DNA from: a virus
Taxonomy: Duplodnaviria; Caudoviricetes
Direction: 5' to 3' (one strand)
Virus record (IMG/VR): IMGVR_UViG_2857375656_000002
Coordinates: 1,302 to 65,301 of that record
DNA length: 64,000 nt
A program made the position numbers and the translations under genes. The notes below the pieces were generated by a model. That model made no database searches, was not told the DNA's origin, and was given only the letters and a program-made list of their open reading frames with translations. Of the stretch, positions 1-15,765 are shown piece after piece. Each line of letters begins with the position of its first letter. Position 1 is the stretch's first letter.

Positions 1-819
1 TTCGCGCCCCACTCGGCGCATCTCGCCCTCGGCAGCGGTTCTGGCTTCAGCCTCGTTCTGGTAACGCTGCGTCACCACCTTGAACGGCGCGATGCCCACC
101 TGCACCACTCGTTGTTTACCGGCTGCCGCGTCCCACCAGGACGTTTGTGCGCCCAGGTAAGTAGCGCGGCTGGTTTGGGTAAAGCTGGCGGTGATAAACG
201 CGCGATCACCCGGACGATTGTCGCGGGTGATCGACAACGGCACGACCGGCAAGACCTTGCCCGACAGCGATTTTGTCTGCCCTTTGCGGCCCAGCACATA
301 CAGCTCGTCGACAGGCTTGGCCACGGCATCGAAGCGATTGGCCAGACGCGTGAGAAACGCCATGTCACTTTCATTGGTCTGGTCGATGTGCGGGATATGC
401 TCGCCTTCCAGATCAGGCGCCACGCGCGGTGAAAAACCGTAGCGCGTGGTCAATTGGCGAAACAGCGCACCCAGGCTGATCGGCCCGTGACTGGCGGTGC
501 GCCGCTTCTTGAATTCGGGCTCATCAAAGGGCGCCGCCGTCGCCACCAACACCAGACGCAGCGGGAACAGTGACGGTGTGCGCTGGGTGATTTTGAAGCG
601 GCCCTTGTCCACCAGGCCCGACTCCCGATACCCGATGCGCAGGCCGATACGCCCGCCCAGGCTGGGCAGCCCTTCAAGGCCCTCGATGTCGAGTGTCAGC
701 TTGAGCTGGTCGGACGTAAACCCGGCCATGTCGGTATGCTCCCACTCCAATAGCCGCTCATTGAGGAGTGCGGCATTGGCACCGTAAATCTCCACCACGG
801 GTGTAAATCCAAGTGTCAT
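1..819 (-). CDS. Phage late control gene D protein (GpD), 3' part outside window
   Basis: Hand translation from ATG at 819: MTLGFTPVVEIYGANAALLNERLLEWEHTDMAGFTSDQLKLTLD...; follows tail X. Confidence 0.82.
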   Translation of the reverse strand, partial: MTLGFTPVVEIYGANAALLNERLLEWEHTDMAGFTSDQLKLTLDIEGLEGLPSLGGRIGLRIGYRESGLVDKGRFKITQRTPSLFPLRLVLVATAAPFDEPEFKKRRTASHGPISLGALFRQLTTRYGFSPRVAPDLEGEHIPHIDQTNESDMAFLTRLANRFDAVAKPVDELYVLGRKGQTKSLSGKVLPVVPLSITRDNRPGDRAFITASFTQTSRATYLGAQTSWWDAAAGKQRVVQVGIAPFKVVTQRYQNEAEARTAAEGEMRRVGRE

Positions 820-828
820 GGTTGCTCC

Positions 829-1041
829 TTAATCCCAGGCCCTAACCGGCTGCCTGGCCACGGGCTGGGTATCCAGCTCAGGCACAATCACATTGACGCC
901 TGCCGGCAATACCGCGCCCTGTTCGGCCAACTGCGGGTTCAAGCGCCACAGCACCTCTTCGGCGGCATCATCACAGCGACCGAGCTCGCGATAGAGCAAC
1001 AGGTTGACCGAGTCACCGGCAATACTTCGAACCTTACGCAT
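829..1041 (-). CDS. Tail protein X (P2 GpX-like)
   Basis: MRKVRSIAGDSVNLLLYRELGRCDD...LNPQLA; start trimmed to 1041. Confidence 0.85.
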   Translation of the reverse strand: MRKVRSIAGDSVNLLLYRELGRCDDAAEEVLWRLNPQLAEQGAVLPAGVNVIVPELDTQPVARQPVRAWD

Positions 1042-1420
1042 TGACGAACTCCTCCAGTACCAACACCCAATTGACCACCATGGCCGTGCCGTCATCGATC
1101 ACACAGGACTGTTTTTCGTCCACCGATTTGATGGTCCACAGCCCCCAGTTCAGGCCTACGCCATCGACCAGCGGCAACGGCACACGCAGGGCTTGCAGCG
1201 CACGCAATTCGTCCATCCGCGCCATGCCCAGCGCGCGTGCGGCCTTGCCGCCGAATGACAGCGTTTCGAGCGCCTGGCCAACTTGGGTGGATTTGGGCTT
1301 GCCGGAAACGATATCCAGGCTGCCCCAACCCCCACTGCTCAAACGGTCCAGGGTGTCGTAGGCAAACCCACGGGACAGCCCGAAAATAAACGGGCCCAAC
1401 GCCATTTGTTGTCGCATCAC
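1034..1420 (-). CDS. Tail protein GpU-like
   Basis: QMALGPFIF...GVGLNWGLWTIKSVDE, typical P2 GpU motifs; position after tape measure. Confidence 0.85.
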   Translation of the reverse strand: MMRQQMALGPFIFGLSRGFAYDTLDRLSSGGWGSLDIVSGKPKSTQVGQALETLSFGGKAARALGMARMDELRALQALRVPLPLVDGVGLNWGLWTIKSVDEKQSCVIDDGTAMVVNWVLVLEEFVNA

Positions 1421-3630
1421 ACCACTCCTGTATCGGTCAGGGCCGAGTCACGTCGCGTCGCCAGCAGGCTGTCCATCGACAGCGGCGAGAATTGCGCCTC
1501 GATCTGTTGCACCACGATCGCGGCCAGTTGTTGTGGGTTGGCCTGCTCGGGTGCGTTGATGGTGATTTGCGGCGCGAAGTTGACTTGGCGGTTGTCGGCT
1601 TGAGCGCTACTGAGGTTTTTGCTGGTCTCGCCGGGTGATGGCAGACGGTCATCGGAGCCCATCAGTTTTTCACTCAGCCAGGCGCCGATATCACTGCCGG
1701 CAAACGTACCCAGCGCGCCGCCGACCACTTTGCCGATGGCACCGCCAGCGACACCGCCCATGACCCCGCCCAGCACTGTGCCAGCCCCCGGCACCACCGA
1801 ACCGATCGCCGCCCCGGCGAGCGTGCCGAGCGCGCGGCCAACGGCCATGCCCGCAAATTCGCCAGCAACGCCACCGGCAACACCGCCGCCGACTGACCCT
1901 ACCGTGGTGCCGACGGCTTTACCCAGGTTCCCCGACATCGCGCCCTGGACAAGGTCAATGCCAGCACCCGCCAGCACCACGCCAAGGGAGCCTCTTCGCG
2001 CGACCTTACTGGCTCTCGCAGTTCGTGAAGGCTTGTCTGCGGAGCGATCACCGCGCGGCGTTTCGTTGCCTTTGGGTGTGTTCTGGCTGGCTGGCGCGCT
2101 CACCTTGCCTGGTGTGGTATTGCCGCCTCCGAGAATCTTGCCGGCGACCTTCTCGAACACCTTGTCCTTCACCGCATCGAACACACCAGAAAACACCGGC
2201 CCCAACGCCGCGCCAGCCAGCGTTACAGCGGCCGTGGTCTTGGGCAGCGCCTCGGCCAACCAGCCCACGCCCGTCACCAGCCCGGTCATCGCGGTTAGCG
2301 AGGTGTCCAAGATCGGCGCCAGCGCGGCATCCTTGGCGGTATCCAGCCGCGTGGTGCTGGCCTCGAAGGCTTGACGACGTGCTTGTGTGGAGTCTGCGCG
2401 AACCGCTGCCGAACGCAGGACCGAGCCTTGTTCGCCAAGTGCCGACGTCGCGTACACCGACTTGTCGGCCACCAGCGTAAACGCCTGCTTTACCGTATCG
2501 ATGGCGGGCACCAGGCTCAGAATCGACTGATTGCCATCGAACAATTGAGTGGCCAACGCCGCTTGTTTCTCAGCCGGTTGCGCCTTGAGCGCTTCAAGCA
2601 CCGTGAGCAGGGTCTGGGGCGCATCCTGCTGCATCCCGCCAGCGAGCAACGTGGGATCAAGCTTGAGCGCCGCCCACGCATTGCGCTGGCTTTCAGAAGC
2701 GCCGTCGCCTTTGGCCAGGGTGCTGCTGATTTTCTCCAGCCCGACACCGGCTGCACTCTTGCTGTTGCCGGCACTGAGCAATGCCGCCGAAAGCGCCGCT
2801 GCCTGCTCGGGGCTCATGCCCGCGGCGGTGGCCGTCCCCCCTGCGCGCTGCACAATCGCGCCGATATCCGCCGCTTCTGCCTTGAGCGAAACGTGGGTGC
2901 CCAACACATTGGTCGCGTCAGCCAGGTCCCGGGTTTGCTCGCGGTCGATTTTCATCGACTCGCGCCAGCCGCCCATCATGTCGCCGGCATTTTTGACGTC
3001 GACCTTGAAGGCCGTCGCCATGATGGCTGCGTCGCGGGCGAACTGGGTCAGGTCGTCCTGACGAGCCGCGCGGTCGATATTGCCCGAGGCATCCTTGCGG
3101 TCGCTGCCGATGCCGGACCGGGCGGCCACATACTCGACCTGTGCCAGGTCCACGGCGCTTGCACCGCTCGCCGCTACCATCGGTTCCGACGCCATGGCCA
3201 AGTTGGTTTCGCGCAGTTGTTTGCGCTGGCGGCCGACAAACATCAACAACTGATCCAGGTCAGTCATCGCGGCATCCAGTGCCTGCGAGGGTTTGCGCGC
3301 CTCAGCGGGGGCTGCAGCTTTTGCTGCTCCCGCGCCTTCGCCAGCTTCAACTTGCCGGGCGTCCATCATCTTGAGCAGTGAGGCGTTGAACAGCTCGAGG
3401 GTATTCACCAGCCGATCCTGCCCCGCCGCCAGGAGATTGATCTCAAGGCTGGCAGTCGCCAGGGCCAACCCCAGACTCGCGGCCTCTACCGGCATCGCGC
3501 CCGAGGGCCCGGCGAGTGTTGACGCAATGGGTTTGATACTGGCCTGCGCCACTGCGGTGTCACGTGAGCCCAGCGTCAGCTCGCCTTCCGTGGCGATGGC
3601 TGACGGGCTTGCATGGTTATTGCCTGCCAT
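1417..3630 (-). CDS. Tail tape measure protein
   Basis: 737 aa Ala/Gly-rich helical protein with TP901-like core and Gly-rich TM C-terminus, between chaperone and GpU. Confidence 0.9.
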   Translation of the reverse strand: MAGNNHASPSAIATEGELTLGSRDTAVAQASIKPIASTLAGPSGAMPVEAASLGLALATASLEINLLAAGQDRLVNTLELFNASLLKMMDARQVEAGEGAGAAKAAAPAEARKPSQALDAAMTDLDQLLMFVGRQRKQLRETNLAMASEPMVAASGASAVDLAQVEYVAARSGIGSDRKDASGNIDRAARQDDLTQFARDAAIMATAFKVDVKNAGDMMGGWRESMKIDREQTRDLADATNVLGTHVSLKAEAADIGAIVQRAGGTATAAGMSPEQAAALSAALLSAGNSKSAAGVGLEKISSTLAKGDGASESQRNAWAALKLDPTLLAGGMQQDAPQTLLTVLEALKAQPAEKQAALATQLFDGNQSILSLVPAIDTVKQAFTLVADKSVYATSALGEQGSVLRSAAVRADSTQARRQAFEASTTRLDTAKDAALAPILDTSLTAMTGLVTGVGWLAEALPKTTAAVTLAGAALGPVFSGVFDAVKDKVFEKVAGKILGGGNTTPGKVSAPASQNTPKGNETPRGDRSADKPSRTARASKVARRGSLGVVLAGAGIDLVQGAMSGNLGKAVGTTVGSVGGGVAGGVAGEFAGMAVGRALGTLAGAAIGSVVPGAGTVLGGVMGGVAGGAIGKVVGGALGTFAGSDIGAWLSEKLMGSDDRLPSPGETSKNLSSAQADNRQVNFAPQITINAPEQANPQQLAAIVVQQIEAQFSPLSMDSLLATRRDSALTDTGVV

Positions 3631-3636
3631 ACCGCT

Positions 3637-3807
3637 CTACTCCTGTTTGACGCCAAGGCGAGTGATCGCGATGTCGTAGCGGCGCAATGCTTTTCCGGCG
3701 TCCCAGTCGAGGATCTCCGCCTCATTGACCGAGTAAATCAGTGGCACCACATCGAGGATTACTTCGATGTCGCGCTCCGAAAGAAGTCCGCCGGTTGATT
3801 TAAAAAA
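3637..3807 (-). other. -1 programmed frameshift site (T TTT TTA at 3807-3801) and GpE' extension of the tail chaperone
   Basis: Slippery heptamer in the chaperone frame; -1 frame open to TAG at 3637, encoding LLSERDIEVILDVVPLIYSVNEAEILDWDAGKALRRYDIAITRLGVKQE. Confidence 0.7.
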
Positions 3808-4331
3808 TCGTCGATGCGCTCCTGCAGTTCCGTCCAGTCAGGAACGGTCAGCCCGGCCAGGTCCGGAATCATCAGGCCGGTGCAATGAGCGGTAATGAAT
3901 TCTGCGCGTTCTTTGTTGGTGGCGAGTTTCTTCATGGCCTTGGTAGCGCGCAGGGCGGGCATTTCCAGGCTCAGTGCGGTCAGGTTGCGGCCGGCGGCAT
4001 CAAGAGGCAGCATCAGGTGCACCTGTTCATGCTGCAACGGTTCATCGCGTTCGCCGAGGAAGAACGACGCAGGCCGCGTCGACATTTCATGCACGTACTG
4101 AGCAATGCTCACGTAGTCCGGGCGCTTGAGCTGATCGAGTTCTTTTTCCGACAGGCCGGTGGCGAGTTTCGCCAGTTCAAAAAACTGGTCGTCCTCGTCA
4201 TCACCGGCCCGGGCGAGTGCAGCTTTTTGCGCGGCGTAGAACAGCGGCTTGAGTTGAATCTGCTGGATCGTCGCGCCAGTGTCGGCGGTGATCGGAGACA
4301 GCAGAATGTGCAGCGGTGGCATCCAGGCCAT
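3759..4331 (-). CDS. Tail assembly chaperone (GpE-like)
   Basis: 190 aa between tube and tape measure, with internal duplication and terminal slippery site. Confidence 0.85.
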   Translation of the reverse strand: MAWMPPLHILLSPITADTGATIQQIQLKPLFYAAQKAALARAGDDEDDQFFELAKLATGLSEKELDQLKRPDYVSIAQYVHEMSTRPASFFLGERDEPLQHEQVHLMLPLDAAGRNLTALSLEMPALRATKAMKKLATNKERAEFITAHCTGLMIPDLAGLTVPDWTELQERIDDFLNQPADFFRSATSK

Positions 4332-4393
4332 GGGGCAATTCCTTGTTTAAGCGTTGTTGAAAGCAGCGCAAATCTAAAGCTGAGCGCGGTCGA

Positions 4394-4481
4394 TGTGGGA
4401 GCTGGCTTGCCTGCGATGGCATCAGCTCGGTACACCAGGCACACCGAGTCGCCTGCATCGCGGGCAAGCCCGGCTCCCACA
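4394..4481. repeat. Pseudomonas REP doublet (REPIN)
   Basis: TGTGGGAGCTGGCTTGCCTGCGATG...CATCGCGGGCAAGCCCGGCTCCCACA inverted pair. Confidence 0.85.
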
Positions 4482-4513
4482 TTGACTGTGCTCACTTCAG
4501 GTCACGGTAGCCC

Positions 4514-5020
4514 TTAAGGCATCAGCACCGCGCGGCGCGCATCGCCGAGAATGTCGACACCGTTGAGCATGAACTTCTGGGTGCGCACGTCGATGTCGAT
4601 CACCGAAATGCCGTTCTCCAGACGGTTGTAGGTACGGCAGGACAGTTCCAAAGTGGTGGTGACCTTGTCGCCCATCTTCAGCTTCGCCTCCTCCAGGGAT
4701 TTGAGTTTGCCGCCGACGGTGTGGTAGGTGAAGTAGGTCTTGCCATCCTGGTCCTGGCCGGCTTCACGCACGTTCAACAGGATGTCGTCGCCCATACGCA
4801 CGCCCAGGGCCAGCATGATTTCCGGCCCGGCACCTTGCAGAACCAACTTGGCATTGAGCACCTTGCCGCTCTTGGCCATCTCTTCGGCGATGAAGCGCCC
4901 GCCGGACATGGATTCCATGTCGAACTCGATCTTTGGCGGGGTGAACTCTTCCACCGTCGCGGACAACGGCAGGCCTTGAAGGGTGGCCGCAATGGCCTGT
5001 CTTACACGGTTGGTAAACAT
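4514..5020 (-). CDS. Major tail tube protein
   Basis: 168 aa, EEFTPPKIEFDME...; immediately after sheath. Confidence 0.9.
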   Translation of the reverse strand: MFTNRVRQAIAATLQGLPLSATVEEFTPPKIEFDMESMSGGRFIAEEMAKSGKVLNAKLVLQGAGPEIMLALGVRMGDDILLNVREAGQDQDGKTYFTYHTVGGKLKSLEEAKLKMGDKVTTTLELSCRTYNRLENGISVIDIDVRTQKFMLNGVDILGDARRAVLMP

Positions 5021-6186
5021 TAGAGAACGTCCTCCAGGAACTGCTCGATGATTTCATCGCGGGCATTGAGTTGGTAAATCATGTGCTCATTCGGCGCATA
5101 GCGGCCGTAGTCGATGACGATGAACCAGGTGCCGTTCTTGTACTTCTCGACACTGTTCAATTCCGGGTGCAGGTACACGCTGCCGCCGGGGATGGTTTCG
5201 TCGGCGACCAGGGTTTGCAGCCAGTCGTTGATGCGCTTGACCTCCTGGTCCATGAACGACTTGGTGAGGTTCTTGGCCATGGCTTTCTGGCCGGCCTTGA
5301 CCAGCTTGCGGCTGATGGCATCTTCCAGGCCGACGTAGCTGATGAACTTGCCGGTGATGGAGCGGTTACCCAGCAGCGAGAAGCCGCCGAGGATGGTGCG
5401 GGCGTAGTAGCTCACGCCATAGCGGTTGAGCAGGTCGCCTTCGGTGGAGGTGTCGAGGATGTTGTACTCGACCACGCGGGAAACGTCCTCGGCGAAGGTC
5501 ACCTGGTTGCCCGGGCTTTCCCATTGCTTGACCTTGGCCAATGCGGCGATGGCCAGCGAAGATGGCGACAGGAACACGTTTTTCTTCGCCGCCTTGGAGT
5601 ACACCGATGGCATGTTGTGCACCAGCAGGCAACGGTCGAAACCGAGGTCGGCACCGCCCAGCTCGCCGCTGTAGGTCACTTGGTCGGCAACGGACGCATC
5701 CTTGCCATCGAGCACCACACGGGCCTTAATGCGTTTGCCGAAAGAGGCGAACTCACCGGCCACGGCTTTGGTGCCGGTGAAGCCCGGGGCGCCGATGATG
5801 GTCAGGTCTTCAGGGACGCTGCTCAGGGCAGCCAGGCCCAGTTTGCGCCCGGTGGTTGGCTCGTTGCCACCGATCACATTGTTGAGGGTGTCGGCCGGGG
5901 TTGCGCCCTCCTCGACGATCACCACGTAAACCGGCACCTTCACCACTTTGAGGATCTGGTACACCGCCTGAAACAGCGTGCCCGACTCGGCGCCGGTCGG
6001 GTCCAGCAACGCCTGGGTGGTGAAGCTGTTGATACGGAATGGCGCATTTTTTGGGATCGACGCGTGGGCATTCGGCGCAGTGCCGACCAGGCCGATGACG
6101 TTATCGCCAAGACCACCCATGGCCTCGGGAGATTCAGTGGCATTCACGGTGATGCCGTTGTGCTCGAAGTTAAGAACCTCAGCCAT
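5020..6186 (-). CDS. Contractile tail sheath protein
   Basis: 388 aa, MAEVLNFEHNGITV...IGLVGTAP...YGRYAPNEHM. Confidence 0.93.
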   Translation of the reverse strand: MAEVLNFEHNGITVNATESPEAMGGLGDNVIGLVGTAPNAHASIPKNAPFRINSFTTQALLDPTGAESGTLFQAVYQILKVVKVPVYVVIVEEGATPADTLNNVIGGNEPTTGRKLGLAALSSVPEDLTIIGAPGFTGTKAVAGEFASFGKRIKARVVLDGKDASVADQVTYSGELGGADLGFDRCLLVHNMPSVYSKAAKKNVFLSPSSLAIAALAKVKQWESPGNQVTFAEDVSRVVEYNILDTSTEGDLLNRYGVSYYARTILGGFSLLGNRSITGKFISYVGLEDAISRKLVKAGQKAMAKNLTKSFMDQEVKRINDWLQTLVADETIPGGSVYLHPELNSVEKYKNGTWFIVIDYGRYAPNEHMIYQLNARDEIIEQFLEDVL

Positions 6187-6188
6187 GG

Positions 6189-6362
6189 TTAGTCAGCCTT
6201 CTTGGGGGTGGAGTTGAGGACGCTGGTCAGTTCCAGGCGGCCGGCGGTGCGCAGGGCGGATGCTTCGACGTCCAGCAGTTGCAGTTCTTCGCCGGCGGTG
6301 GACCAGTGGCCACCTCCGAGGGGGAATGGGATGAGGACGGTGTAGGTTTGGCGGTTGGCCAT
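6189..6362 (-). CDS. Small hypothetical tailocin protein
   Basis: MANRQTYTVLIPFPLGGGHWSTAGEELQLLDVEA...; start trimmed to 6362. Confidence 0.65.
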   Translation of the reverse strand: MANRQTYTVLIPFPLGGGHWSTAGEELQLLDVEASALRTAGRLELTSVLNSTPKKAD

Positions 6363-6416
6363 GTGTAAATTTCTCCAGATGCAAAAATCCCCGTTCAGCA
6401 GGGAATTTAATGGGCG

Positions 6417-6438
6417 AAAAAAAACCGCTTTCGCGGTT
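6417..6438 (-). terminator. Intrinsic terminator after fibre chaperone
   Basis: AACCGC-GAAA-GCGGTT followed by a T run on the minus strand. Confidence 0.6.
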
Positions 6439-6448
6439 ATGTCAGTCC

Positions 6449-6769
6449 CTAGATTGGCGCGATAGGCCAATTGATTGAGGCAGGAAAACCTTCCTGCTTA
6501 TCGATGCGGTTCAATTCGATTCGATACAGCTTCCAGGCTTGCAGCCGTGCCGCCTCGTCATCGGTTGCCTTCCCCAAGTCTTGTGCATCCAACAGGGGGG
6601 CGATACGTATCGCCGCGACTTGCAACAGTTCGTCTCGACGCTGCATGGCTTCGTTACTCACCAGCTGTGCCATAACCTCAGCTGCATCTTCAGCCGTCAA
6701 ACCCATCCCTTCCAAACTCTCTGCATCTGGATTGACGTATATCGACCCCTTGTAATTCACTGTTCTCAC
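6449..6769 (-). CDS. Tail fibre assembly chaperone (Tfa-like)
   Basis: RIAPLLDAQDLGKATDDEAARLQAWKLYRIELNRID...INWPIAP. Confidence 0.85.
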   Translation of the reverse strand: MRTVNYKGSIYVNPDAESLEGMGLTAEDAAEVMAQLVSNEAMQRRDELLQVAAIRIAPLLDAQDLGKATDDEAARLQAWKLYRIELNRIDKQEGFPASINWPIAPI

Positions 6770-6780
6770 TTAAACGCTCC

Positions 6781-7623
6781 TTATGCGGAAATAGTTGTAT
6801 ATGCCTGGCGCGCCGTGTAGGAACCTGGCGCCAAGGTAAGCAAACTATCAAGTGTCGCCCCAGTGCCGAAACCAACAATAGACACCGTGCTGATATCAAC
6901 CATTTTCGGCACACCAACATTGACAATTGTCGTCTGGGCTCCGCCTTTGCTAATGGTCGTCTGCGCGAGACTTAGCTGAATAAACCCGTAGTACGTGGAA
7001 AACAACGGAACGTCCTGAATCACGATCTCACACTTATGAAAAAACAACTTGAAGCTCACACTTTCGCCCACCCCACCATCACGAGAAAACAACCCGCCAT
7101 AATCAGGGCCATACTGCGAAACGCCATTTGCCAGGCCGGTTTCTATTCGGCAGTCGGTGAACTTAATCGACATTTCTGTGATCGCGGAGAAACCACCACA
7201 CACGTAGACATTCGAATCAGAAAAGCGCACCAACGCGCCTCGAACGACTGGTTTAGAGGCTTCTGTACCATACGGGATGAATAGAAGCGACATATTGTCA
7301 ACATTGGTCCCGCCCAAGCCCCGACCGACCTCATAGACTTTTCCACGACGGAGAAAAATAGTGGCGGAGCCGCACAACATGACCCTGCCCACCGCAGCAG
7401 CAATGGTTTTAAGTGGCTTATCCGGAGTGAGACCGCTATTGGTGTCCAGGCCACTGGAGGAGTCGACATATAAAACCTTGTTAACTTCTGCTCGAACAGC
7501 CGCTGGCACCTGCTCAGTGGCCGCAACTACTTTCTGATCGATTAACGATATCTTTTTACTTACCGTATCCGTTAGTGCATTGCATGCCGACACCAGGCCG
7601 GCGATTACCGTTTCCAAACTCAT
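6781..7623 (-). CDS. Tail fibre / receptor-binding protein
   Basis: 280 aa, N-terminal coiled coil then VLYVD...DTNSGLTPDKPLKTI beta-helix-like region; lower GC than neighbours. Confidence 0.78.
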   Translation of the reverse strand: MSLETVIAGLVSACNALTDTVSKKISLIDQKVVAATEQVPAAVRAEVNKVLYVDSSSGLDTNSGLTPDKPLKTIAAAVGRVMLCGSATIFLRRGKVYEVGRGLGGTNVDNMSLLFIPYGTEASKPVVRGALVRFSDSNVYVCGGFSAITEMSIKFTDCRIETGLANGVSQYGPDYGGLFSRDGGVGESVSFKLFFHKCEIVIQDVPLFSTYYGFIQLSLAQTTISKGGAQTTIVNVGVPKMVDISTVSIVGFGTGATLDSLLTLAPGSYTARQAYTTISA

Positions 7624-7674
7624 CTTTTACACTCCTTGTAAAACGTCGTTTTTTCCAGTAGCCAAAGGCGAGGA

Positions 7675-8205
7675 CTATTTAAGTTCTACGCTCATGACCC
7701 GAAACAACACCCCCATATGCCGCGCCATGTTATCAATACTTGCCGCGGCGAGCTGCGCAAACTCCCCTGCCATCAAGACATTAAGATTTTCATTGCCTAC
7801 TACAACCGTCACACTGTCCGTCGGCAACGGCGAAATATCTAACGTAAATCGTTGAAGCACTCGAGTCGCAGACGCTTTATAAGTCAGCAACTTTCCCGCC
7901 ACCGAGTAAATCGCCAGCAAGGTCCCACTGGCGAGATAAAAACCAAACTCGCCAATCTCATACTCGGCCTCGCCATCAAACAGCGCGGCCATCCTGAGTT
8001 GCCGGTCGCCCAAGTCCTCATAATCCACAATGGCGACACGCTGGCGTTCATCACGCAAGGCCACTTCCGTTCCGTCTGGGTTGTACCGGCCGGTACCGGC
8101 GCCGATGTGGGTAATTTCGCCTCTCAAACCCTGGTTCTTTGCCTGCAGCACTTCATCCAAACCTTTGGAGGTGAAGCGCACCAGGCGCGTAATGTCATCT
8201 GTCAT
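7675..8205 (-). CDS. Proximal tail fibre / baseplate-attachment protein
   Basis: RFTSKGLDEVLQAKNQGLRGEITHIGAGTGRY...EIGEFGFYLASGTLLA, typical fibre N-terminal domain. Confidence 0.75.
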   Translation of the reverse strand: MTDDITRLVRFTSKGLDEVLQAKNQGLRGEITHIGAGTGRYNPDGTEVALRDERQRVAIVDYEDLGDRQLRMAALFDGEAEYEIGEFGFYLASGTLLAIYSVAGKLLTYKASATRVLQRFTLDISPLPTDSVTVVVGNENLNVLMAGEFAQLAAASIDNMARHMGVLFRVMSVELK

Positions 8206-8840
8206 GGCTGCGCCCTGAGGTCGTAGTCGTTAATGGTGTAGTGCTGGGCCACCCCAGCGCTGTTAAGTCGGGCAACCAACGCCAACTCCGGCAACGCGCC
8301 GTGCAGGCACAGCTCGCCATCGCTTAACGGGGCGTGGAGGACCTGAGTGAGCGCAAGCCGACCTTCGGTTTCATGCACGATGGTGATAGTCGCCAGGTCC
8401 CGCTCGCTCTTGGCTGCGTTGATACGACGGATCAGTCGATTGTGATCACCGCTGGACCAACTGCGACCGATGATTGCCTGCACGTCGAAGGTGTAAGGCT
8501 TCTCCACCGGACGCTGCTGATACCACGCGCTGATGTTGGGCGTGAACCCCAGCGATTCCACCGCATGACTCAATGCTTGGGGCGTGCCGGCCTGGCGTTG
8601 GATTTGCCAAGACAAGGCTACGGTGAGGCGCTTTTCGGTTGCGCTGGCGGCCGCATCCCACTCACTCACACCCCGGTCGGCGGCAAGGTAAGGAAGAAAC
8701 TCAGTAGGCGTTTGCAGTGGGTTCATCAACGCCGGAAACGGCGGCATCACACGGTCGAGCAGCTTGCCAAACCCCAAGTCCAACGCCTTTTCCAACGGTG
8801 AACTGTTGGCGGGTAACAACGTCGTTTTGGGCTCACTCAT
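8202..8840 (-). CDS. Tail protein I (P2 GpI-like)
   Basis: LLPANSSPLE...LPYLAADRGVSEW...GTPQAL. Confidence 0.85.
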   Translation of the reverse strand: MSEPKTTLLPANSSPLEKALDLGFGKLLDRVMPPFPALMNPLQTPTEFLPYLAADRGVSEWDAAASATEKRLTVALSWQIQRQAGTPQALSHAVESLGFTPNISAWYQQRPVEKPYTFDVQAIIGRSWSSGDHNRLIRRINAAKSERDLATITIVHETEGRLALTQVLHAPLSDGELCLHGALPELALVARLNSAGVAQHYTINDYDLRAQP

Positions 8841-9832
8841 AGCGTGCGCACCTCCACCTCGACACCCTTGCAATACGGCGCCTGGAACGCGGTGCTGATG
8901 ATTGGCTCCAGCGGCTCAAGGATTTGCAGTTGCGCAGCGCCGGCGCTGTGAATCGCATAATCAATCCAGCTCGGATCCACCCGCCCTTCCAGCCGGTGAC
9001 AAGACTCCGCGTAGTCCTGCAGCAGCTTTTGAGCGGCAACCTGGGTAAGCCCCGAATCCGGGCCAGCGTTGATCTTGGCGACCACGCGGATTTTGTACGG
9101 CAGGATTTGCGCGCCTTGCACACTGACCAGATCCGTCTCCGGCCGTACATCCGGCCGTGCGAAATGGCGACGAACGCCGTCAAGCAAATCGGCAGAAGGC
9201 GTGCCGTCGCCCTCACGGGAAAGCACGGTGACCATCACTTCGCCGGGCGCTGTTCGACGCCCATTGCCGTCTTTGACCTGGGCCGCATAGCCGTCCGGGT
9301 CAAAGGTGTAGCTGACGGTTACCACACCTGGCGTAGCGCTTTGCACCTTCACCGACGGCCGTTCGCCTAGAGTGAAAACCTCACGCCGATACTGCATTCG
9401 CGAACCTGCCGCCGGGGCATGCGGCGCCAGGTAGTAACGCAGGCGAGCGTCGTCATCGCTCTCCAATGTTGGCGGCACAGGCGGAAATGCCGCCGGGTCG
9501 CCAGGGTCGAGTACTTGGCGTTCCAGGCCCATATCGGCCAGGCGTGCATCCAGGTTGCTGCCGGTGGCCCACCACGCCAGCATCTGCTTGATGCGTGCAT
9601 TGTATTTGCGCGCGTGGGTTTGCAGCCGCACACAAAACGCTTCCAGCGCCAGGGTCAGCAGCTCGCTTTCATTGTCGAGGCTGACCTTGAGTTTGGCCGC
9701 ACTTTGCGGCGCTCGGGTGGCGACGTAGTCAACGACAAACGCCTTGAACTCGGCCAACAACGGTTCGAACTCGTCCACCGCAATGATGGCCGGTTCCGCC
9801 AGTTGGTTCTGGCCGGGGATCAGCATGCTCAT
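8837..9832 (-). CDS. Baseplate J-like protein
   Basis: 331 aa, ESDDDARLRYYLAPHAPAAGSRMQY. Confidence 0.9.
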   Translation of the reverse strand: MSMLIPGQNQLAEPAIIAVDEFEPLLAEFKAFVVDYVATRAPQSAAKLKVSLDNESELLTLALEAFCVRLQTHARKYNARIKQMLAWWATGSNLDARLADMGLERQVLDPGDPAAFPPVPPTLESDDDARLRYYLAPHAPAAGSRMQYRREVFTLGERPSVKVQSATPGVVTVSYTFDPDGYAAQVKDGNGRRTAPGEVMVTVLSREGDGTPSADLLDGVRRHFARPDVRPETDLVSVQGAQILPYKIRVVAKINAGPDSGLTQVAAQKLLQDYAESCHRLEGRVDPSWIDYAIHSAGAAQLQILEPLEPIISTAFQAPYCKGVEVEVRTL

Positions 9833-10161
9833 GTCACGACCTCGAAGGTTTGTTGGCGGTTTTTCCAGGTGCCGGCGAAGCGCAACAACAAGCCGGCACC
9901 TTGGCGGGTGGCGACGATGACCTGGGGTTGGAAATCGCCGATGCCGTTCTGCGCGTTATAGAACGCTTGGGCGGCGTGGCTTTGGGCGAGAATCAGCAGG
10001 TCGTCGCCGAGGTTCTGGCCGAGCAGTTGCGGGATCTGCGAGCCGTACAGCGGGCGTTTTTGGCGAGTGCCCACGGGGGTGGTCAGCGCTCGGGTGGCGC
10101 GCTGCACGAATTGCAGCCAGTCATCAACGGCTGCGCCGGTGTTCCTGTCGATTCCGATCAT
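9829..10161 (-). CDS. Baseplate wedge protein (GpW/gp25-like)
   Basis: MIGIDRNTG...ALTTPVGTRQKRPLYGS. Confidence 0.85.
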   Translation of the reverse strand: MIGIDRNTGAAVDDWLQFVQRATRALTTPVGTRQKRPLYGSQIPQLLGQNLGDDLLILAQSHAAQAFYNAQNGIGDFQPQVIVATRQGAGLLLRFAGTWKNRQQTFEVVT

Positions 10162-10170
10162 GCGGTGTCC

Positions 10171-10782
10171 TTATCGGGGGCTGATGACGCGGCCTTGGTG
10201 GTCCACTACGGGGCCGCTGAAGTGTGCGCCGCCGGCATCGAGCAACAGGCGGGTGCCGCCGATTTGCAGGGTGATGCCCTGGGCGCTCATGGTCAGGCTG
10301 GCGGCGCCGACCTTGACGTCGACCTGCTCGCGGGAGCCGGTAAAGGTGGTGGGGCCGTTGACCCAGTTGAACGTGTGGCTGGCGTCGTCGTAATCGCTTT
10401 GAGTGCCGTCCTGATGGCGGCGCCGGGTCAAGCTGGCAACGCTGGAGACCGGCGGAAACTGACTAGTGTTCAGGCCGAACAAGGCCACAGACTGGCCGCC
10501 GCCTTCGCCGCCGCCGTAGTTGAGCAACAGGCATTGTTCGCCCACGGACGGAATGCGCGTTTCAGTCTGTGCACCGGCGCTGGGGTTGAAAAAACGGATG
10601 GCCGGCGTGAGCAACTCACCGTGGCTGACCTTGCAGGTATTGCTGGCGGCGTCGACCTCCTGACACACGCCAATGCGGCAGAAGCTTTCGGCACGCCGGT
10701 AAAGGTCTTCAAGCTGGGTTTCCATTTCCACCAGGCGCTCTACGATCGGCCCCAGTTGCATGCGTAACAGCGCGTCGAACAT
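10171..10782 (-). CDS. Baseplate spike protein V
   Basis: RIPSVGEQCLLL...HDHQ-like metal-binding tip (VVDHQG). Confidence 0.85.
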   Translation of the reverse strand: MFDALLRMQLGPIVERLVEMETQLEDLYRRAESFCRIGVCQEVDAASNTCKVSHGELLTPAIRFFNPSAGAQTETRIPSVGEQCLLLNYGGGEGGGQSVALFGLNTSQFPPVSSVASLTRRRHQDGTQSDYDDASHTFNWVNGPTTFTGSREQVDVKVGAASLTMSAQGITLQIGGTRLLLDAGGAHFSGPVVDHQGRVISPR

Positions 10783-10785
10783 GGG

Positions 10786-11301
10786 CTACTCCGCCAGGGG
10801 TTTGTATTGATCGGGGTCGTTGATGTTCGAGACTTCCCAGGTGCGGGCGAACAGCGGTTGACCTGTGGGATCGGTGAGTAATACAGGTCCCAAGTAAAGG
10901 GTTTGGGTGAAGGAAACGGTCCAGGTGTCGTAGTCCGTTTCCGCCGTGGTGCGCACAGACGGCGCGGCGACGATATTCATCGGCAAATCACACTGTGCCT
11001 GCGGCAGGTTCCAGCGGTTATCCAGCACCAGGTCCATCAGTTGGCTGGCCAGGTCGCACGCATCAAATGGCAATGCCCCGGGCGCAACCATGGCCTTGAG
11101 CGAAAGGGTCAACGCGTGAGCCTTGCGCCCTTCTCGGGAGCGAATGCCGGGGCCATTGCCCTCGACCGTGATCAATACGCCGGTGTTATCCCCGGTGCCG
11201 TTAAAGTCCTGGTGATTGCCGATCTTCAGGTCCGGGAAGGCCGCTTGCAGCGACTCGCCAATGGCGAGGGGCAGTTGAGAGGGCTTTTCGATGAGCATCA
11301 T
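10786..11301 (-). CDS. Tail terminator/completion-like protein
   Basis: YDTWTVSFTQTLYLG motif; first structural gene after holin; start trimmed to 11301. Confidence 0.65.
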   Translation of the reverse strand: MMLIEKPSQLPLAIGESLQAAFPDLKIGNHQDFNGTGDNTGVLITVEGNGPGIRSREGRKAHALTLSLKAMVAPGALPFDACDLASQLMDLVLDNRWNLPQAQCDLPMNIVAAPSVRTTAETDYDTWTVSFTQTLYLGPVLLTDPTGQPLFARTWEVSNINDPDQYKPLAE

Positions 11302-11324
11302 TTTAAGTAGCGTCCTTGCAACAG

Positions 11325-11663
11325 TTACTGCGGGTCCTGACGGGAGTTTTCGTTGATTCCGATGCGCTTGGCCGCCCACCGCTCATACAGGCCGATGGCT
11401 ACATCGGCACCGGCCATGGCAGTCAGGCAACCGATGGCGCCGGCTGTCCAGATCGACATGCCGGCGGCGTAGCACAGCATCAGCGCTGAAACGCCGCACA
11501 CCATGCAGGCCCCGGAGCGCAGGGCCAGACGGCGGATCAGCGACCAACCCCGTGCGCCCTCTTTGTCGGCGCGCCACATTTCACCGGATACCCCGCCGAT
11601 CACTGCCAATACGATGACCAGCCAGATAGGCATTTCCGCTAACGCTTGCTGTTCATTTGTCAT
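11325..11663 (-). CDS. Tailocin holin (LydA-like, 3 TM)
   Basis: MTNEQQALAEMPIWLVIVLAVIGGVSGEMWRADK...; start trimmed to 11663. Confidence 0.85.
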   Translation of the reverse strand: MTNEQQALAEMPIWLVIVLAVIGGVSGEMWRADKEGARGWSLIRRLALRSGACMVCGVSALMLCYAAGMSIWTAGAIGCLTAMAGADVAIGLYERWAAKRIGINENSRQDPQ

Positions 11664-11733
11664 GTCACGCCTCCTGGCTGAGCAATAGATAGTCCGTTTT
11701 TCATTTACAAATGCTTCGATAGGTAGGCATTCC

Positions 11734-11758
11734 AAAAAGCCCGGTCGCCCGGGCTTTT
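11734..11758 (-). terminator. Intrinsic terminator in the tailocin leader, upstream of holin
   Basis: AAAAGCCCGG-GCGA-CCGGGCTTTTT. Confidence 0.7.
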
Positions 11759-11963
11759 CAGTAATGCGGTCCAGATTCGGTCTTTCGGCGCTACTGGCGC
11801 GGTACGGACCTTTCCTCAATGTTTTTCCGACCACGATCCCTGTCTGCCGGATAACTGCTTCTGGTGCTTTACGCTGCACACCCGGGTCAGTTGCCAACCC
11901 TCTGAACCGTTATTAGGCCGGTTCATCGCTGCCTGTTTTTGAAGCGTTGAAACTAAAGAGCGT

Positions 11964-12070
11964 CGGCATCCTTGCCGCTGTTGCCTGGCATCCCTGCCAT
12001 CGCTTCGATGGCGTCCTTGCCGATGTTGCGTGCCGTCCTTGTCACTTTCCTTGGCAGCATCCTTGCCGCC
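11964..12070 (-). repeat. Array of six ANGGA motifs, several in hairpin loops (RsmA/CsrA-site-like)
   Basis: Minus strand CGGCA-AGGA-TGCCG, TGGCA-GGGA-TGCCA, GGC-AAGGAC-GCC plus three further CAAGGA motifs. Confidence 0.65.
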
Positions 12071-12100
12071 TCCACCACCTTGTTGGCTGGCTTGAGACGA

Positions 12101-12129
12101 AGAATATGCATGTATGCATATACAGTCAA
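12101..12129 (-). promoter_or_regulatory. Sigma70-like promoter of tailocin operon overlapped by a near-consensus LexA box (12110-12125)
   Basis: TTGACT-17 nt-TATTCT; CTGTATATGCATACAT is one mismatch from CTGT-N8-ACAG. Confidence 0.55.
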
Positions 12130-12216
12130 TGCACAAATGCATTTATTTTTGCCGTGGAAATGCATGCGTGCATTCGCGGCCTTGCGGGCAGAGGGCTTGG
12201 TGGTTTTCTGCAGGCG

Positions 12217-12243
12217 AAAAAAAGCCCGCGCAATGGCGGGCGT
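12217..12243 (-). terminator. Terminator after prtR-like gene
   Basis: GCCCGC-CATTGC-GCGGGC followed by T7. Confidence 0.7.
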
Positions 12244-12260
12244 TGTCTTACGTAAGGAGG

Positions 12261-12995
12261 TTAACGGGCGTACATGCCCCACCAGAACACATGACCGAGG
12301 ATGCTGATCTGCTCATCCTGGATATCCTGGAAACTGTAGTCCTCGTCCGGGTGTTCATCGCGATTGAAGCTGCGCAAGCGAATCCCGGTAGGCAGGCGGT
12401 AGAGCTGTTTCACCCGTAACTGGCCATTGTGGTTGATGGCATACAAATCGCCATCGACGATATCGCCAATGCCACTCTTGCCTGCGTTCACCCCGACCGT
12501 GGCGCCGTCGCGCAGCACCGGCAACATACTGTTGCCGCGCACCGTCACACACTTGGCCTGGTCGAACTGCACACCGTTATGCCGCAAGCTGCGCTTGCCG
12601 AACCGCAGGCTGGCCTTCTCGCTTTCCTCGATGACGAATCTTCCTGATCCAGCAGCCAATTCAACCTCGCGCAGAAAGGGGATCGACACCTCGTCATCAT
12701 TAACGGGCGTGTCGTCGTCCCACAGGCTTATGTCCTTGAGTTCCGAATGCATCGGGTCGCGCCCGTCATCGCGCAAAGCCCCCGCCGCCGCGCGCCCGCG
12801 CAGGTGGTCGGTGCTGACGCGAAAGTACTCGGCGATGCGCGAGATGTGCTTGTCCGACGGGTCAACGATCTTGCCGCTGAGGATCCGCGAGAGTGTGGAT
12901 TGAGGCACGCCGGTACGCCGGTGAAGCTCCGTGGGGGAGATCCGGTCGCGGTCCAGCAGTTCTCTTAAGACGATAGAAACGTTGCGTTTTTGCAT
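12261..12995 (-). CDS. prtR: PrtR-like XRE/S24 autocleaving repressor of the tailocin
   Basis: N-terminal HTH (GVPQSTLSRILSG), AAG cleavage site, VRGNSM Ser and RVKQL Lys of S24 peptidase. Confidence 0.85.
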   Translation of the reverse strand: MQKRNVSIVLRELLDRDRISPTELHRRTGVPQSTLSRILSGKIVDPSDKHISRIAEYFRVSTDHLRGRAAAGALRDDGRDPMHSELKDISLWDDDTPVNDDEVSIPFLREVELAAGSGRFVIEESEKASLRFGKRSLRHNGVQFDQAKCVTVRGNSMLPVLRDGATVGVNAGKSGIGDIVDGDLYAINHNGQLRVKQLYRLPTGIRLRSFNRDEHPDEDYSFQDIQDEQISILGHVFWWGMYAR

Positions 12996-13037
12996 AACGC
13001 GGATAGTGCCGGGAGTTTTAAGGGTTGGCAAATGCTA

Positions 13038-13058
13038 ATTTGCATAATTTATGCAAAT
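13038..13058. promoter_or_regulatory. Perfect palindrome upstream of prtR-like gene (candidate operator)
   Basis: ATTTGCATAA-T-TTATGCAAAT. Confidence 0.5.
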
Positions 13059-13373
13059 CAGAAAGCTACAGCCAAAATGTCAGTAAACGATGGGGGACTG
13101 GACACTCATCAACTTCAAAGTCTGAGAGGCTGTTATCAGCCAAAAGCAGTCATTCATCTGACCTTCAAACAAGGGGTATTTATACGGAGAACGACAATCG
13201 AGAAATTATGAGGCACCGGCGGTCGGACTCGTCTCAAGCACCGCTCTGGAAGGCCGATACCACAGGTGTTAATTTGCGCGGCTCCGGCCACGAACCGGAA
13301 CCGCAGACAGGGATGTTTGGACGTCTTTCACGCCCAACCAGGCGTGCCTAATTTCTGTCATGAGTATCATCCG

Positions 13374-14996
13374 ATGCTGCAAAGATCCCTAAGAACCCAA
13401 ATCCTCGCGCTGCTGAGCGGCAGCCTGTTGGCGATGTTGCTGATTGCTTTGGCATGCTTTCATTTCCTGTCCAGCGGGGTGCAAAACTACGCCAACCTAA
13501 TCGAAGGTCCGCTGCACACGTCGCAATTGATCGACGAAGCCAACCTGCAATTCAAGGTGCAGGTACAGGAATGGAAAAACGTATTACTACGGGGCAAGCA
13601 GCCGGCAGACCTGGATAAATATTGGAAGCAATTCGAAGAACGTCAGCGCGACGTGCAGGGGATCCTCGGCGAATTGGCTAACCAAAATGGCCTGGACGGC
13701 CAACTCAAGGCCCGCATCGAACGCCTGCGTGACGAACACCGTCAGCTGGGAAGCGCTTACCAGAAAGGTCGCGATGCCTATATCGCCGCGGGTGCAGACC
13801 CCACTGCTGGCGACGCCGCCGTTAAAGGCGTCGACCGTGCTACCAGCGACCAGATGAGCGAACTTGTCGGCGAACTGCGCAAACAGGGCACCGAGCAATC
13901 GACGCTGATCAGCGCTGCTGCAAAACGCACGGTGATGCTGGGGATTATCGTAATGCTCACCTCGGGTCTGTTGATCGGCCTGTTGAGCCTGTGGCTCATC
14001 AACCGCAACTTGGTTGACCCCATCCGCAAGCTGATCGACTACGTGGCGCAACTGAGCCAAGGCAAACTGACCGAACGCGTGGTCAGTAGCCGTGAAGACG
14101 AGTTGGGCAAACTGGCCATGGCCGCCAACACCTTGCGCGACTTTCTCGCCGAAACCTTCAACCGCTTGCAGCGCAGCGCCAAGGATCTGGACAGCGCAAG
14201 TGGCGAGTTAAACGCCATCGCCGGTCTCATGGCCAGCGGTACCAACGAGCAGTTCAACCGTACCGATCAGGTGGCTACGGCGATGAACGAAATGTCCGCC
14301 ACCGCCCAGGAAGTGGCTCGTCACGCAGCCGATGCCGCACGCGCTGCCGATGATGCCGACCAATCCGCGCAGCAGGGCGAAAAAGTCATGCGGGGCACCA
14401 TTCACACCATCACCCAAATGCGTGGCGAGATCGCCAACACAGCCACGGTGATCCGTCGCCTGGAAACCGACAGTGGCCGCATCGGCAAGGTGCTGGAAGT
14501 GATACGCGGCATCGCCGAACAGACTAATTTGCTGGCGCTGAACGCGGCGATCGAAGCGGCCCGCGCCGGTGAAGCCGGACGCGGTTTTGCGGTCGTGGCC
14601 GACGAAGTGCGAAGCCTGGCCCAGCGCACAGCGGCGTCGATCATCGAAATCAACCAGATCATCCAAACGGTGCAAACCGGCGCGGTGGACGCGGCTCAGG
14701 CGATTGAAAGTGGCCAGTCGCGCAGTGAAGAAAGTGTCGCGCAAGTGAATGAGGCCGGCGCCATGCTGGAGCGCATCACCCATGCCGTGGAAGCCATTCG
14801 CGACATGAACCGCCAGATTGCCACCGCCGCCGAAGAGCAAACCTCGGTGGCGGAAGACATCTCGCGCAACCTCACCGAAATCACCACGATTGCCAGCACC
14901 AACCTGGACAACATGCAGCGCACCGAAGCGGCAAGCCGCAACCTTCACGGGTTGTCAGGGCAGTTGAATGAAGTGACGGCACGCCTGAGTGCTTAG
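13374..14996 (+). CDS. Methyl-accepting chemotaxis protein (4HB sensor, HAMP, MA domain)
   Basis: Two TM segments, [47 protein letters not shown]. Confidence 0.95.
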
Positions 14997-15633
14997 CCGG
15001 ACCGTTAGCGGTTAGATCGGCTTCAGGCTGAGCAGTGTTGGAAGACCGAGCCCCGTATTTCATAGCCTTACACGGGGCAATGCTCAGACCAAAGACTCTC
15101 AGCATTTGCGTGACCTTGCGGCGGTGATACCTAATCGACGAAACGTAGGCTTTTTTTGCGGGCACGCTGGACAGCTTTTTTGCCAGGCTCTTTTGGCAGC
15201 AACTGCGTTAGATCCGATAATCGCGTCTCCGCTTTTTCGAGCGCGTTGATTGAGTAGCGCTGCCAAACCTTTTCAACTGGCCACAGGTCATGTTCAGTCG
15301 ACCTCTCGCGACGGGCATCTTTTGTCCGTTTCCACTTGATCAGTCGATTGATCGGTAGTGGCCTAAAGCTGCTTTCACCTTTAAGCCACTGACCAGGGCT
15401 CTTATCTTCAGGTGATCATTGGCGGGGCGTATCCCCCCGCATAGGCCCGCTGGCAACTGGCAAAGCAAAGAGGCCCCTCTTTTCCCAGTTGCACCCACCC
15501 CAGCACCACGCTACCCTCCTTCCCGTCGCTGCCAATTCAGCGACCGGGCCTGAGAACCCGGCAAGATGCAGGCGCACCAAGCGCCCCCAAACCCGATTTG
15601 CAGGCGTTTTTTTTCGCCTCACAATTCGTGCAA

Positions 15634-15710
15634 TGGCGGCTGTGCGTGGGAGACCTTCGGGTCTGCCGGGTTCCTGTATCTCCGGTTTCTCAGCCTGCGC
15701 ACAGCTGCCA
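15634..15710 (+). ncRNA. C4 antisense-like RNA
   Basis: Closing stem TGGCGGCTGTGCG/CGCACAGCTGCCA, AGACC-TTCG-GGTCT hairpin; loops complementary to CTGAGAACCCGG at 15550-15561 and GCCTGAGAAC at 15718-15727. Confidence 0.65.
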
Positions 15711-15765
15711 CCCATTCGCCTGAGAACGAACGTGGTAGCTCTCCACTGATATGGGAGTTTTACCG

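Follow-up and report, generated by a model that had tools for sequence, protein, structure and literature searches.

In enterobacteria, clusters of CsrA sites are known from operon leaders: the Salmonella fim 5′ UTR is a CsrA decoy, and in the Escherichia coli pgaA leader CsrA alters Rho-dependent termination, in both cases with effects beyond occlusion of a ribosome-binding site. A different kind of leader element is represented by HK022 putL and putR, cis-encoded structured antiterminator RNAs that come just after an early promoter of the phage and have no protein of their own encoded close by. The small RNAs RsmX, RsmY and RsmZ (Rfam clan CL00106), which titrate Rsm dimers, present A(N)GGA motifs in hexaloops and in short single-stranded linkers and have a rho-independent terminator downstream; a hexaloop ANGGAX placed directly on a stem is the high-affinity site of RsmE (Duss 2014, PMC4005645). 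NusB-NusE binds to boxA in antitermination elements of the nut and rrn types (PMC8632103).

The leader RNA of a Pseudomonas tailocin operon, analysed here in a window of 64,000 nucleotides of viral DNA, shares features with each of these systems. Like the fim and pgaA leaders, it carries a cluster of predicted CsrA-family sites, but those leaders are enterobacterial, are not SOS-controlled and are not tied to boxA or phage-tail bacteriocins. The cluster, referred to as the GGA array, has the motif arrangement and the downstream terminator of RsmX/Y/Z. It differs from them in having a promoter of SOS/PrtR type and in being part of an operon leader, of which it makes up the 5′ third; 230 nt of structured, unrelated RNA separate it from the terminator. 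As in lambda nut and rrn leaders, a boxA lies upstream of terminators and a long operon, and as in lambda nut it is found just downstream of a repressor-controlled promoter. The tailocin leader, on the other hand, has no N-like gene and no recognisable boxB or boxC, a large multi-helix RNA follows its boxA, and some copies of this structured core occur without boxA. Like HK022 put, the core is cis-encoded, structured and very highly conserved across different elements, which suggests contact with a host machine, but at ~160 nt and six helices it is far larger, and no similarity to put was detected. The best reading of the array is that of a module for Rsm binding, which would serve as a sponge induced by the SOS response, as a read-through gate, or as both; what appears to be new is an array of Rsm-type sites under SOS control within a phage-type leader of boxA and structured RNA.

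The leader lies on the minus strand between a repressor gene and the tailocin operon, and its inferred start near 12094 and its end at the terminator (11758..11734) give a length of ~365 nt. The features of the locus are as follows:

12261..13031, minus strand: PrtR-type repressor gene, with HTH and S24 peptidase domains (Pfam Peptidase_S24, 1.3e-18; HTH_3/HTH_26, 1.2e-08)
12224..12241, minus strand: intrinsic terminator of the prtR-type repressor gene, an all-GC 6-bp stem followed by seven T
12101..12129, minus strand: leader promoter TTGACT-17-TATTCT, with 9/12 consensus positions
12110..12125, minus strand: LexA-type box CTG-N10-CAT overlapping the leader promoter, with one mismatch to CTGTAT-N4-ATACAG
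12074..12091, minus strand: 5′ hairpin H0 at the transcript start, with pairs kept in 101-103 of 103 loci
11964..12072, minus strand: GGA array of four ANGGAX hexaloop hairpins and two single-stranded AAGGA motifs
11954..11962, minus strand: boxA CGCTCTTTA, one nucleotide after the last array hairpin (H4)
11775..11935, minus strand: structured core RNA of ~160 nt with six helices
11734..11758, minus strand: intrinsic leader terminator, GCCCGG-GCGA-CCGGGC followed by five T, with the stem paired in 103/103 loci
11325..11663, minus strand: holin, the first gene of the tailocin operon (Pfam Phage_holin_3_5, 2.1e-52), with its ATG at 11663

Downstream of the holin are genes for baseplate V/J/I, and 70 nt separate the leader terminator from the holin. 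A promoter with an overlapping near-LexA box had been proposed in an earlier reading of the sequence alone, and both were confirmed, at 12129..12101 and 12125..12110 on the minus strand. This promoter was the only sigma-70-like site in the region 11000..13500. ATGCAT repeats also overlap it, and a palindrome, TTGCATAAATTATGCAA (13056..13040, minus strand), upstream of prtR has ATGCA half-sites in common with these repeats. Since such half-sites occur at both promoters, the repeats and the palindrome are probably PrtR operators. The spacer of ~95 nt between the prtR terminator and the leader promoter is poorly conserved, and among 103 loci the nucleotide diversity was 0.056 in the promoter versus 0.27 in the spacer just upstream. 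Elsewhere in the window, Rfam matches above threshold were obtained on the plus strand at 15511-15564 and 15629-15715, with 83.1 bits for a C4 antisense RNA and 47 bits for its a1/b1 target; together they constitute a P1/P7-type immunity system of a neighbouring prophage.

Six ANGGA motifs, at least three of them in hairpin loops, had been claimed for the array by the sequence-only reading. All six were found, within 96 nt (12064..11969), with starts at 12064, 12052, 12040, 12018, 11995 and 11973 on the minus strand, and the number of hairpin loops on GC stems was four:

12053..12070, minus strand: hairpin H1, GC stem, ANGGAX hexaloop AAGGAU
12047..12052 and 12035..12040, minus strand: two single-stranded AAGGA motifs
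12010..12021, minus strand: hairpin H2, GC stem, ANGGAX hexaloop AAGGAC
11987..11998, minus strand: hairpin H3, GC stem, ANGGAX hexaloop AGGGAU
11964..11977, minus strand: hairpin H4, GC stem, ANGGAX hexaloop AAGGAU

This density is non-random: first-order Markov simulations of the same stretch yielded a mean of 1.1 motifs (P = 0.0008), and no other stretch on either strand of the 64-kb window reached six ANGGA per 130 nt. All four hairpins contain a common 12-nt unit, GGCA-NGGA-UGCC, and their geometry fits the high-affinity consensus of RsmE (Duss 2014). In the nascent 5′ part of the RNA, the GGA of the four loops had a predicted probability of being unpaired of at least 0.90. Taking the identity of the motifs together with the pattern of selection described below, it is likely that Rsm proteins bind the array. 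Related hosts have three CsrA-family genes each.

The array was compared with the Rsm small RNAs. The true RsmZ of a related genome contains six ANGGA in 136 nt, the same number as the array; it scores 122.6 bits and has the GacA box TGTAAGCATTCGCTTACT upstream. With the Rfam PrrB_RsmZ model the window array reached 23.8 bits, below the membership threshold of 44, and in five homologous leaders the Rfam Rsm models gave nothing at E <= 1. Membership in the RsmZ, RsmX or RsmY families was rejected because the 23.8-bit match was not reproduced in these homologs. A search for the GacA box TGTAAG-N6-CTTACA with up to three mismatches found none near 11900..12400, which places the array outside the canonical set of Gac-controlled sponges. 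In the related genome, rsmZ (L227, G001:C5:102052-102186) is located ~4.3 kb from the leader array (G001:C5:106440-106550). An origin of the array by copying from the nearby rsmZ was rejected, as the local alignment was not significant (P = 0.07). A stand-alone sRNA gene was rejected as well, given that boxA and the 160-nt core precede the terminator and the holin follows it. The initial proposal of an SOS-induced Rsm sponge or Rsm-controlled leader is thus upheld by the motif match, the RsmZ-like motif count, the selection pattern and the repressor/LexA-type promoter, but not as regards a separate sRNA gene, a GacA box, Rfam membership or homology to rsmZ.

With the holin protein as query, 80 loci from viral contigs and 80 from genomes were collected, and diversity was calculated for a sample of 103 distinct loci of the P. 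fluorescens subgroup that covers many named species. Over these 103 loci the nucleotide diversity was 0.265 at third codon positions of the holin and 0.23-0.30 in three flanking spacers, compared with 0.065 in the GGA array, 0.043 in the structured core, 0.034 in the leader terminator and 0.003 in boxA. The array is hence about 4 times less variable than neutral sites. Within it, the A of the motif had a diversity of 0.000, the GGA of 0.025 and the stems of 0.010, compared with 0.100 for the linkers and 0.178 for each of the positions N and X. The GGA triplet was kept in 102-103 of the 103 loci for five of the motifs, and the sixth was lost in 9. The array is under purifying selection, and the pattern is that of the Rsm-binding consensus. 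Conservation of the GGA loops, on which the sequence-only reading had made its proposal depend, was therefore near complete. As to the covariation it had called for, motifs and stems are conserved, but there was not a single compensatory change in the array stems among the 103 loci, because these stems hardly vary. The case for the array hairpins is consequently one of thermodynamics and conservation.

Could the array be a neutral, young tandem expansion of the GGCA-NGGA-UGCC unit with no function of its own? The derivation of four hairpins from one 12-nt unit, the confinement to one subgroup and the existence of copy-number variants between repeats (L001 is short of ~30 nt and L057 of 45 nt) would all agree with such an origin. 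It is largely refuted by the purifying selection, as the diversity is four times below that of neutral sites in 103 distinct loci from many named species, and exactly six ANGGA are kept in 83 of the 102 unique array-bearing leaders; we regard it as highly improbable. Purifying selection alone does not identify a ligand, however, and the array could be functional in a manner unrelated to Rsm, as a 5′ stabiliser, a spacer or folding aid for boxA and core, a shield against Rho or RNase, or the site of another protein. The stems are conserved as much as the GGA triplets, the array fails Rfam family membership, and one intermediate lineage (L144) has non-GGA hairpins at the insertion point of the array. 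Yet the combination of a fixed A and GGA with free N and X is specifically the Rsm consensus, and a generic structure would not be expected to fix the triplet in six units, two of which lie outside hairpins. A role of this kind is for these reasons considered rather unlikely.

The statement that the array has no credible open reading frame required qualification, since a 35-codon frame runs over the array from ATG 12060 to TAG 11953 on the minus strand, with a GGAGG 8 nt upstream. In the window the Shine-Dalgarno spacing of a peptide of 34-35 residues would thus be good, and the frame is intact in 68 of 103 loci. The other 35, however, comprise 23 with a frameshift, 9 with internal stops and 3 without the start, and the diversity by codon position (0.058/0.081/0.054) has no excess at third positions. 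The start codon is part of an AAGGAUG binding motif and the stop codon part of boxA, so that the frame is explained as a by-product of these elements. The array as a small-protein gene was accordingly rejected on the broken frames and the missing codon periodicity, which makes a peptide the least credible of the explanations considered, with next to no probability. A 36-codon frame in the core was rejected as coding on account of a 2-nt indel.

The array was found in 102 unique leaders of the fluorescens subgroup and was absent from 34 leaders of a short type. The loci with the array are assigned to P. fluorescens- and gessardii-subgroup species, and the array is present in a single copy per genome, always at the tailocin. 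Leaders without it occur in the koreensis, brassicacearum/corrugata, mandelii-type and other lineages. They retain the promoter, the first hairpin (an equivalent of H0), a (C/A)GCTCTTTAG motif, the 3′ domain and the terminator, but have ~40 nt where the window has ~140 nt, with zero ANGGA there in 34/34 unique leaders. The array is an insertion made by the P. fluorescens subgroup into an older, phage-type leader RNA. The tailocin architecture is the same in lineages that lack the array, which makes the array an accessory element.

Several individual loci depart from these two layouts. In a P. cyclaminis locus (L124, 2169-2439) the promoter, array, boxA and terminator are kept and the whole core is lost, which gives the leader a layout like that of a stand-alone Rsm-type sRNA ahead of the holin. 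In L086 and L118, an extra insertion of ~115 nt with its own hairpins is situated between core and terminator. Koreensis-type loci (L126, L130 and others) have cargo genes between leader and holin with duplicated leader terminators on the flanks; the cargo encodes proteins of 150-190 residues, one of which by eye resembles a tail-fibre-assembly protein. Koreensis-type leaders (L126, L131, L139 and others) also contain a hairpin formed by GCUUCCUU/AAGGAAGC just before the terminator, whose loop always ends in ACAGGAU; GAAGGAG comes next. It seems that GGA sites were acquired independently here, again on this leader.

The part of the leader downstream of the array begins with boxA, in which CGCTCTTTA matches the rrn leader boxA CGCTCTTTAACAA at 9/9 positions; in a related genome the rrn boxA is located 150 nt before the 16S gene. 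The helices of the structured core are:

11925-11919/11909-11903, minus strand: core helix
11900-11894/11890-11884, minus strand: core helix
11882-11878/11867-11863, minus strand: core helix
11851-11843/11836-11826, minus strand: core helix
11799-11797/11791-11789, minus strand: core helix
11810-11807/11782-11779, minus strand: core stem F, paired in 102/102 loci with AU/GC and UA/AU swaps

RNAalifold on 42 diverse core copies returned five helices with 31 pairs, 11 of which had compensatory changes, and 99.2% of cells were paired. None of 500 shuffles reached any of these measures, and slid controls paired at most 46% of cells. The core is thus a conserved structured RNA supported by covariation, in which it differs from the GGA array. 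No Rfam family matched 11760..11935 at E <= 10. The loop of helix 5, CAGUA (11792-11796, minus strand), is complementary to UACUG (11759-11763, minus strand) just 5′ of the terminator hairpin, and pairing of the two could link core and terminator in a pseudoknot; neither segment varies enough for covariation to be seen. Many Pseudomonas genomes have further copies of the core at a second and a third locus (L195-L206), directly after different phage-type promoters and operators and near DUF1654, LuxR-type and HNH genes. These extra copies are with or without boxA and never have the array.

The most economical reading of the leader is that of a boxA/RNA-based element for processive antitermination. 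It is drawn from the cargo genes enclosed by duplicated terminators, from the region 1..11800, in which no sigma-70-like promoter was found compared with 3.3 expected by chance, and from an internal terminator-like site. Two terminator-like hairpins are present between tail genes within the tailocin operon (6388-6438, minus strand), one of them at 6438..6423.

In the mechanism proposed for the array, it would serve as a platform for the host CsrA-family proteins RsmA/E/I in the 5′ part of the leader. DNA damage would lift the PrtR/LexA-type repression, the strong promoter at 12129..12101 would fire, and the first ~130 nt of the RNA would expose the four high-affinity ANGGAX hexaloops and the two single-stranded GGA sites, with boxA, the structured core and the intrinsic terminator to follow. 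Terminated transcripts of ~365 nt would build up and titrate Rsm dimers in the manner of RsmX/Y/Z, since six high-affinity sites on a strongly induced, terminated RNA could soak up the dimers by mass action. The SOS response would then relieve Rsm repression of Gac/Rsm-controlled traits, besides the read-through that makes tailocin. Titration as the main selected effect of the array is ranked first among the explanations, albeit tentatively, with a weight somewhat short of even.

The array sites overlap no conserved translation start, for which reason a decoy fits better than a classic Rsm target; the ribosome-binding site of the holin lies ~300 nt away from the array, past the terminator. The strong and conserved terminator would produce a discrete RNA. 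Both the P. cyclaminis variant with array, boxA and terminator but no core and the koreensis-type ACAGGAU hairpin near the 3′ end of the leader would count in favour of titration. Against it count the missing GacA box, the sub-threshold RsmZ score, the stems without covariation and the accessory nature of the array. Moreover, cells lyse once fully induced, which would largely confine the importance of a sponge to induction that is sub-lethal or heterogeneous, and a role in cis would fit at least as well, as the array adjoins boxA and the tailocin copy of the leader is the only one to carry it.

Such a role in cis is the alternative placed close behind titration, as possible if somewhat unlikely. 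Binding of Rsm to the nascent array would alter the resistance of RNA polymerase to the terminator or to Rho at boxA and core, so that expression of holin and tailocin would be limited to low levels of free Rsm (Gac on, high density) or would follow the opposite rule, and titration would be a by-product. The position of the array speaks for it, because H4 ends one nucleotide before a boxA identical to that of rrn, and the array is found on the tailocin copy only and not on other core copies in the same genomes. In 102/102 long and 26/34 short leaders a GGA is found at most 16 nt from the terminator, and the koreensis lineage has inserted its ACAGGAU-loop hairpin just before the terminator. The leader ends in a strong terminator, and the prtR-holin interval has no open reading frame with a protein-family match and none for an activator or antiterminator; beyond it, the promoterless region 1..11800 contains the terminator-like site at 6438..6423. 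A lethal, domesticated operon would also be a place where added gating by the host makes sense, and the effect of CsrA on Rho-dependent termination in the pgaA leader offers a parallel. On the other hand, no CsrA-family protein is known to us to control a boxA/Nus complex, six sites exceed the need of control in cis, and antitermination by the leader is itself inferred. In SBW25, moreover, loss of gacS ameliorates plasmid cost, and Hall 2021 (PMC8544851) ascribes this gacS effect on SOS/tailocin cost to PFLU4242 and not to the leader. A combined version, in which RsmA/E on the array would decide whether boxA and core convert RNA polymerase to terminator resistance while the terminated leader feeds back as a sponge, is held to be doubtful.

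Literature on tailocins together with RsmA, gacA or antitermination, on prtR together with sRNA, and on RIP/CLIP of RsmE in SBW25 contained no description that we could find of the leader RNA or its Rsm sites. The paper on PrtR1 of P. protegens takes all 516 bp of the prtR1-hol region as the ‘promoter’, with no mention of a leader or terminator. Nor did we find a paper that draws the link between the SOS response and Gac/Rsm that the array, if it is an array of Rsm sites, would directly provide at the molecular level; a further consequence would be a sponge-type RNA outside Gac control.

The boxA, together with a core that has no Rfam match and also occurs in other prophage-like operons, is a candidate RNA-based antitermination element in its own right. 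If Rsm gates boxA, a CsrA-family protein would for the first time be placed in control of a switch for processive antitermination. How cells decide to produce tailocin also bears on the fitness costs of plasmids, as SOS induction of the holin of this operon underlies plasmid cost in SBW25 (Hall 2021, PMC8544851). Tailocin production kills the producer, which makes the decision to fire central to kin competition in Pseudomonas. The array probably ties DNA-damage-induced self-lysis to the Gac/Rsm lifestyle switch, and if it gates boxA, altruistic lysis and tailocin release would respond jointly to DNA damage, through PrtR/LexA, and to population state, through Gac/Rsm.
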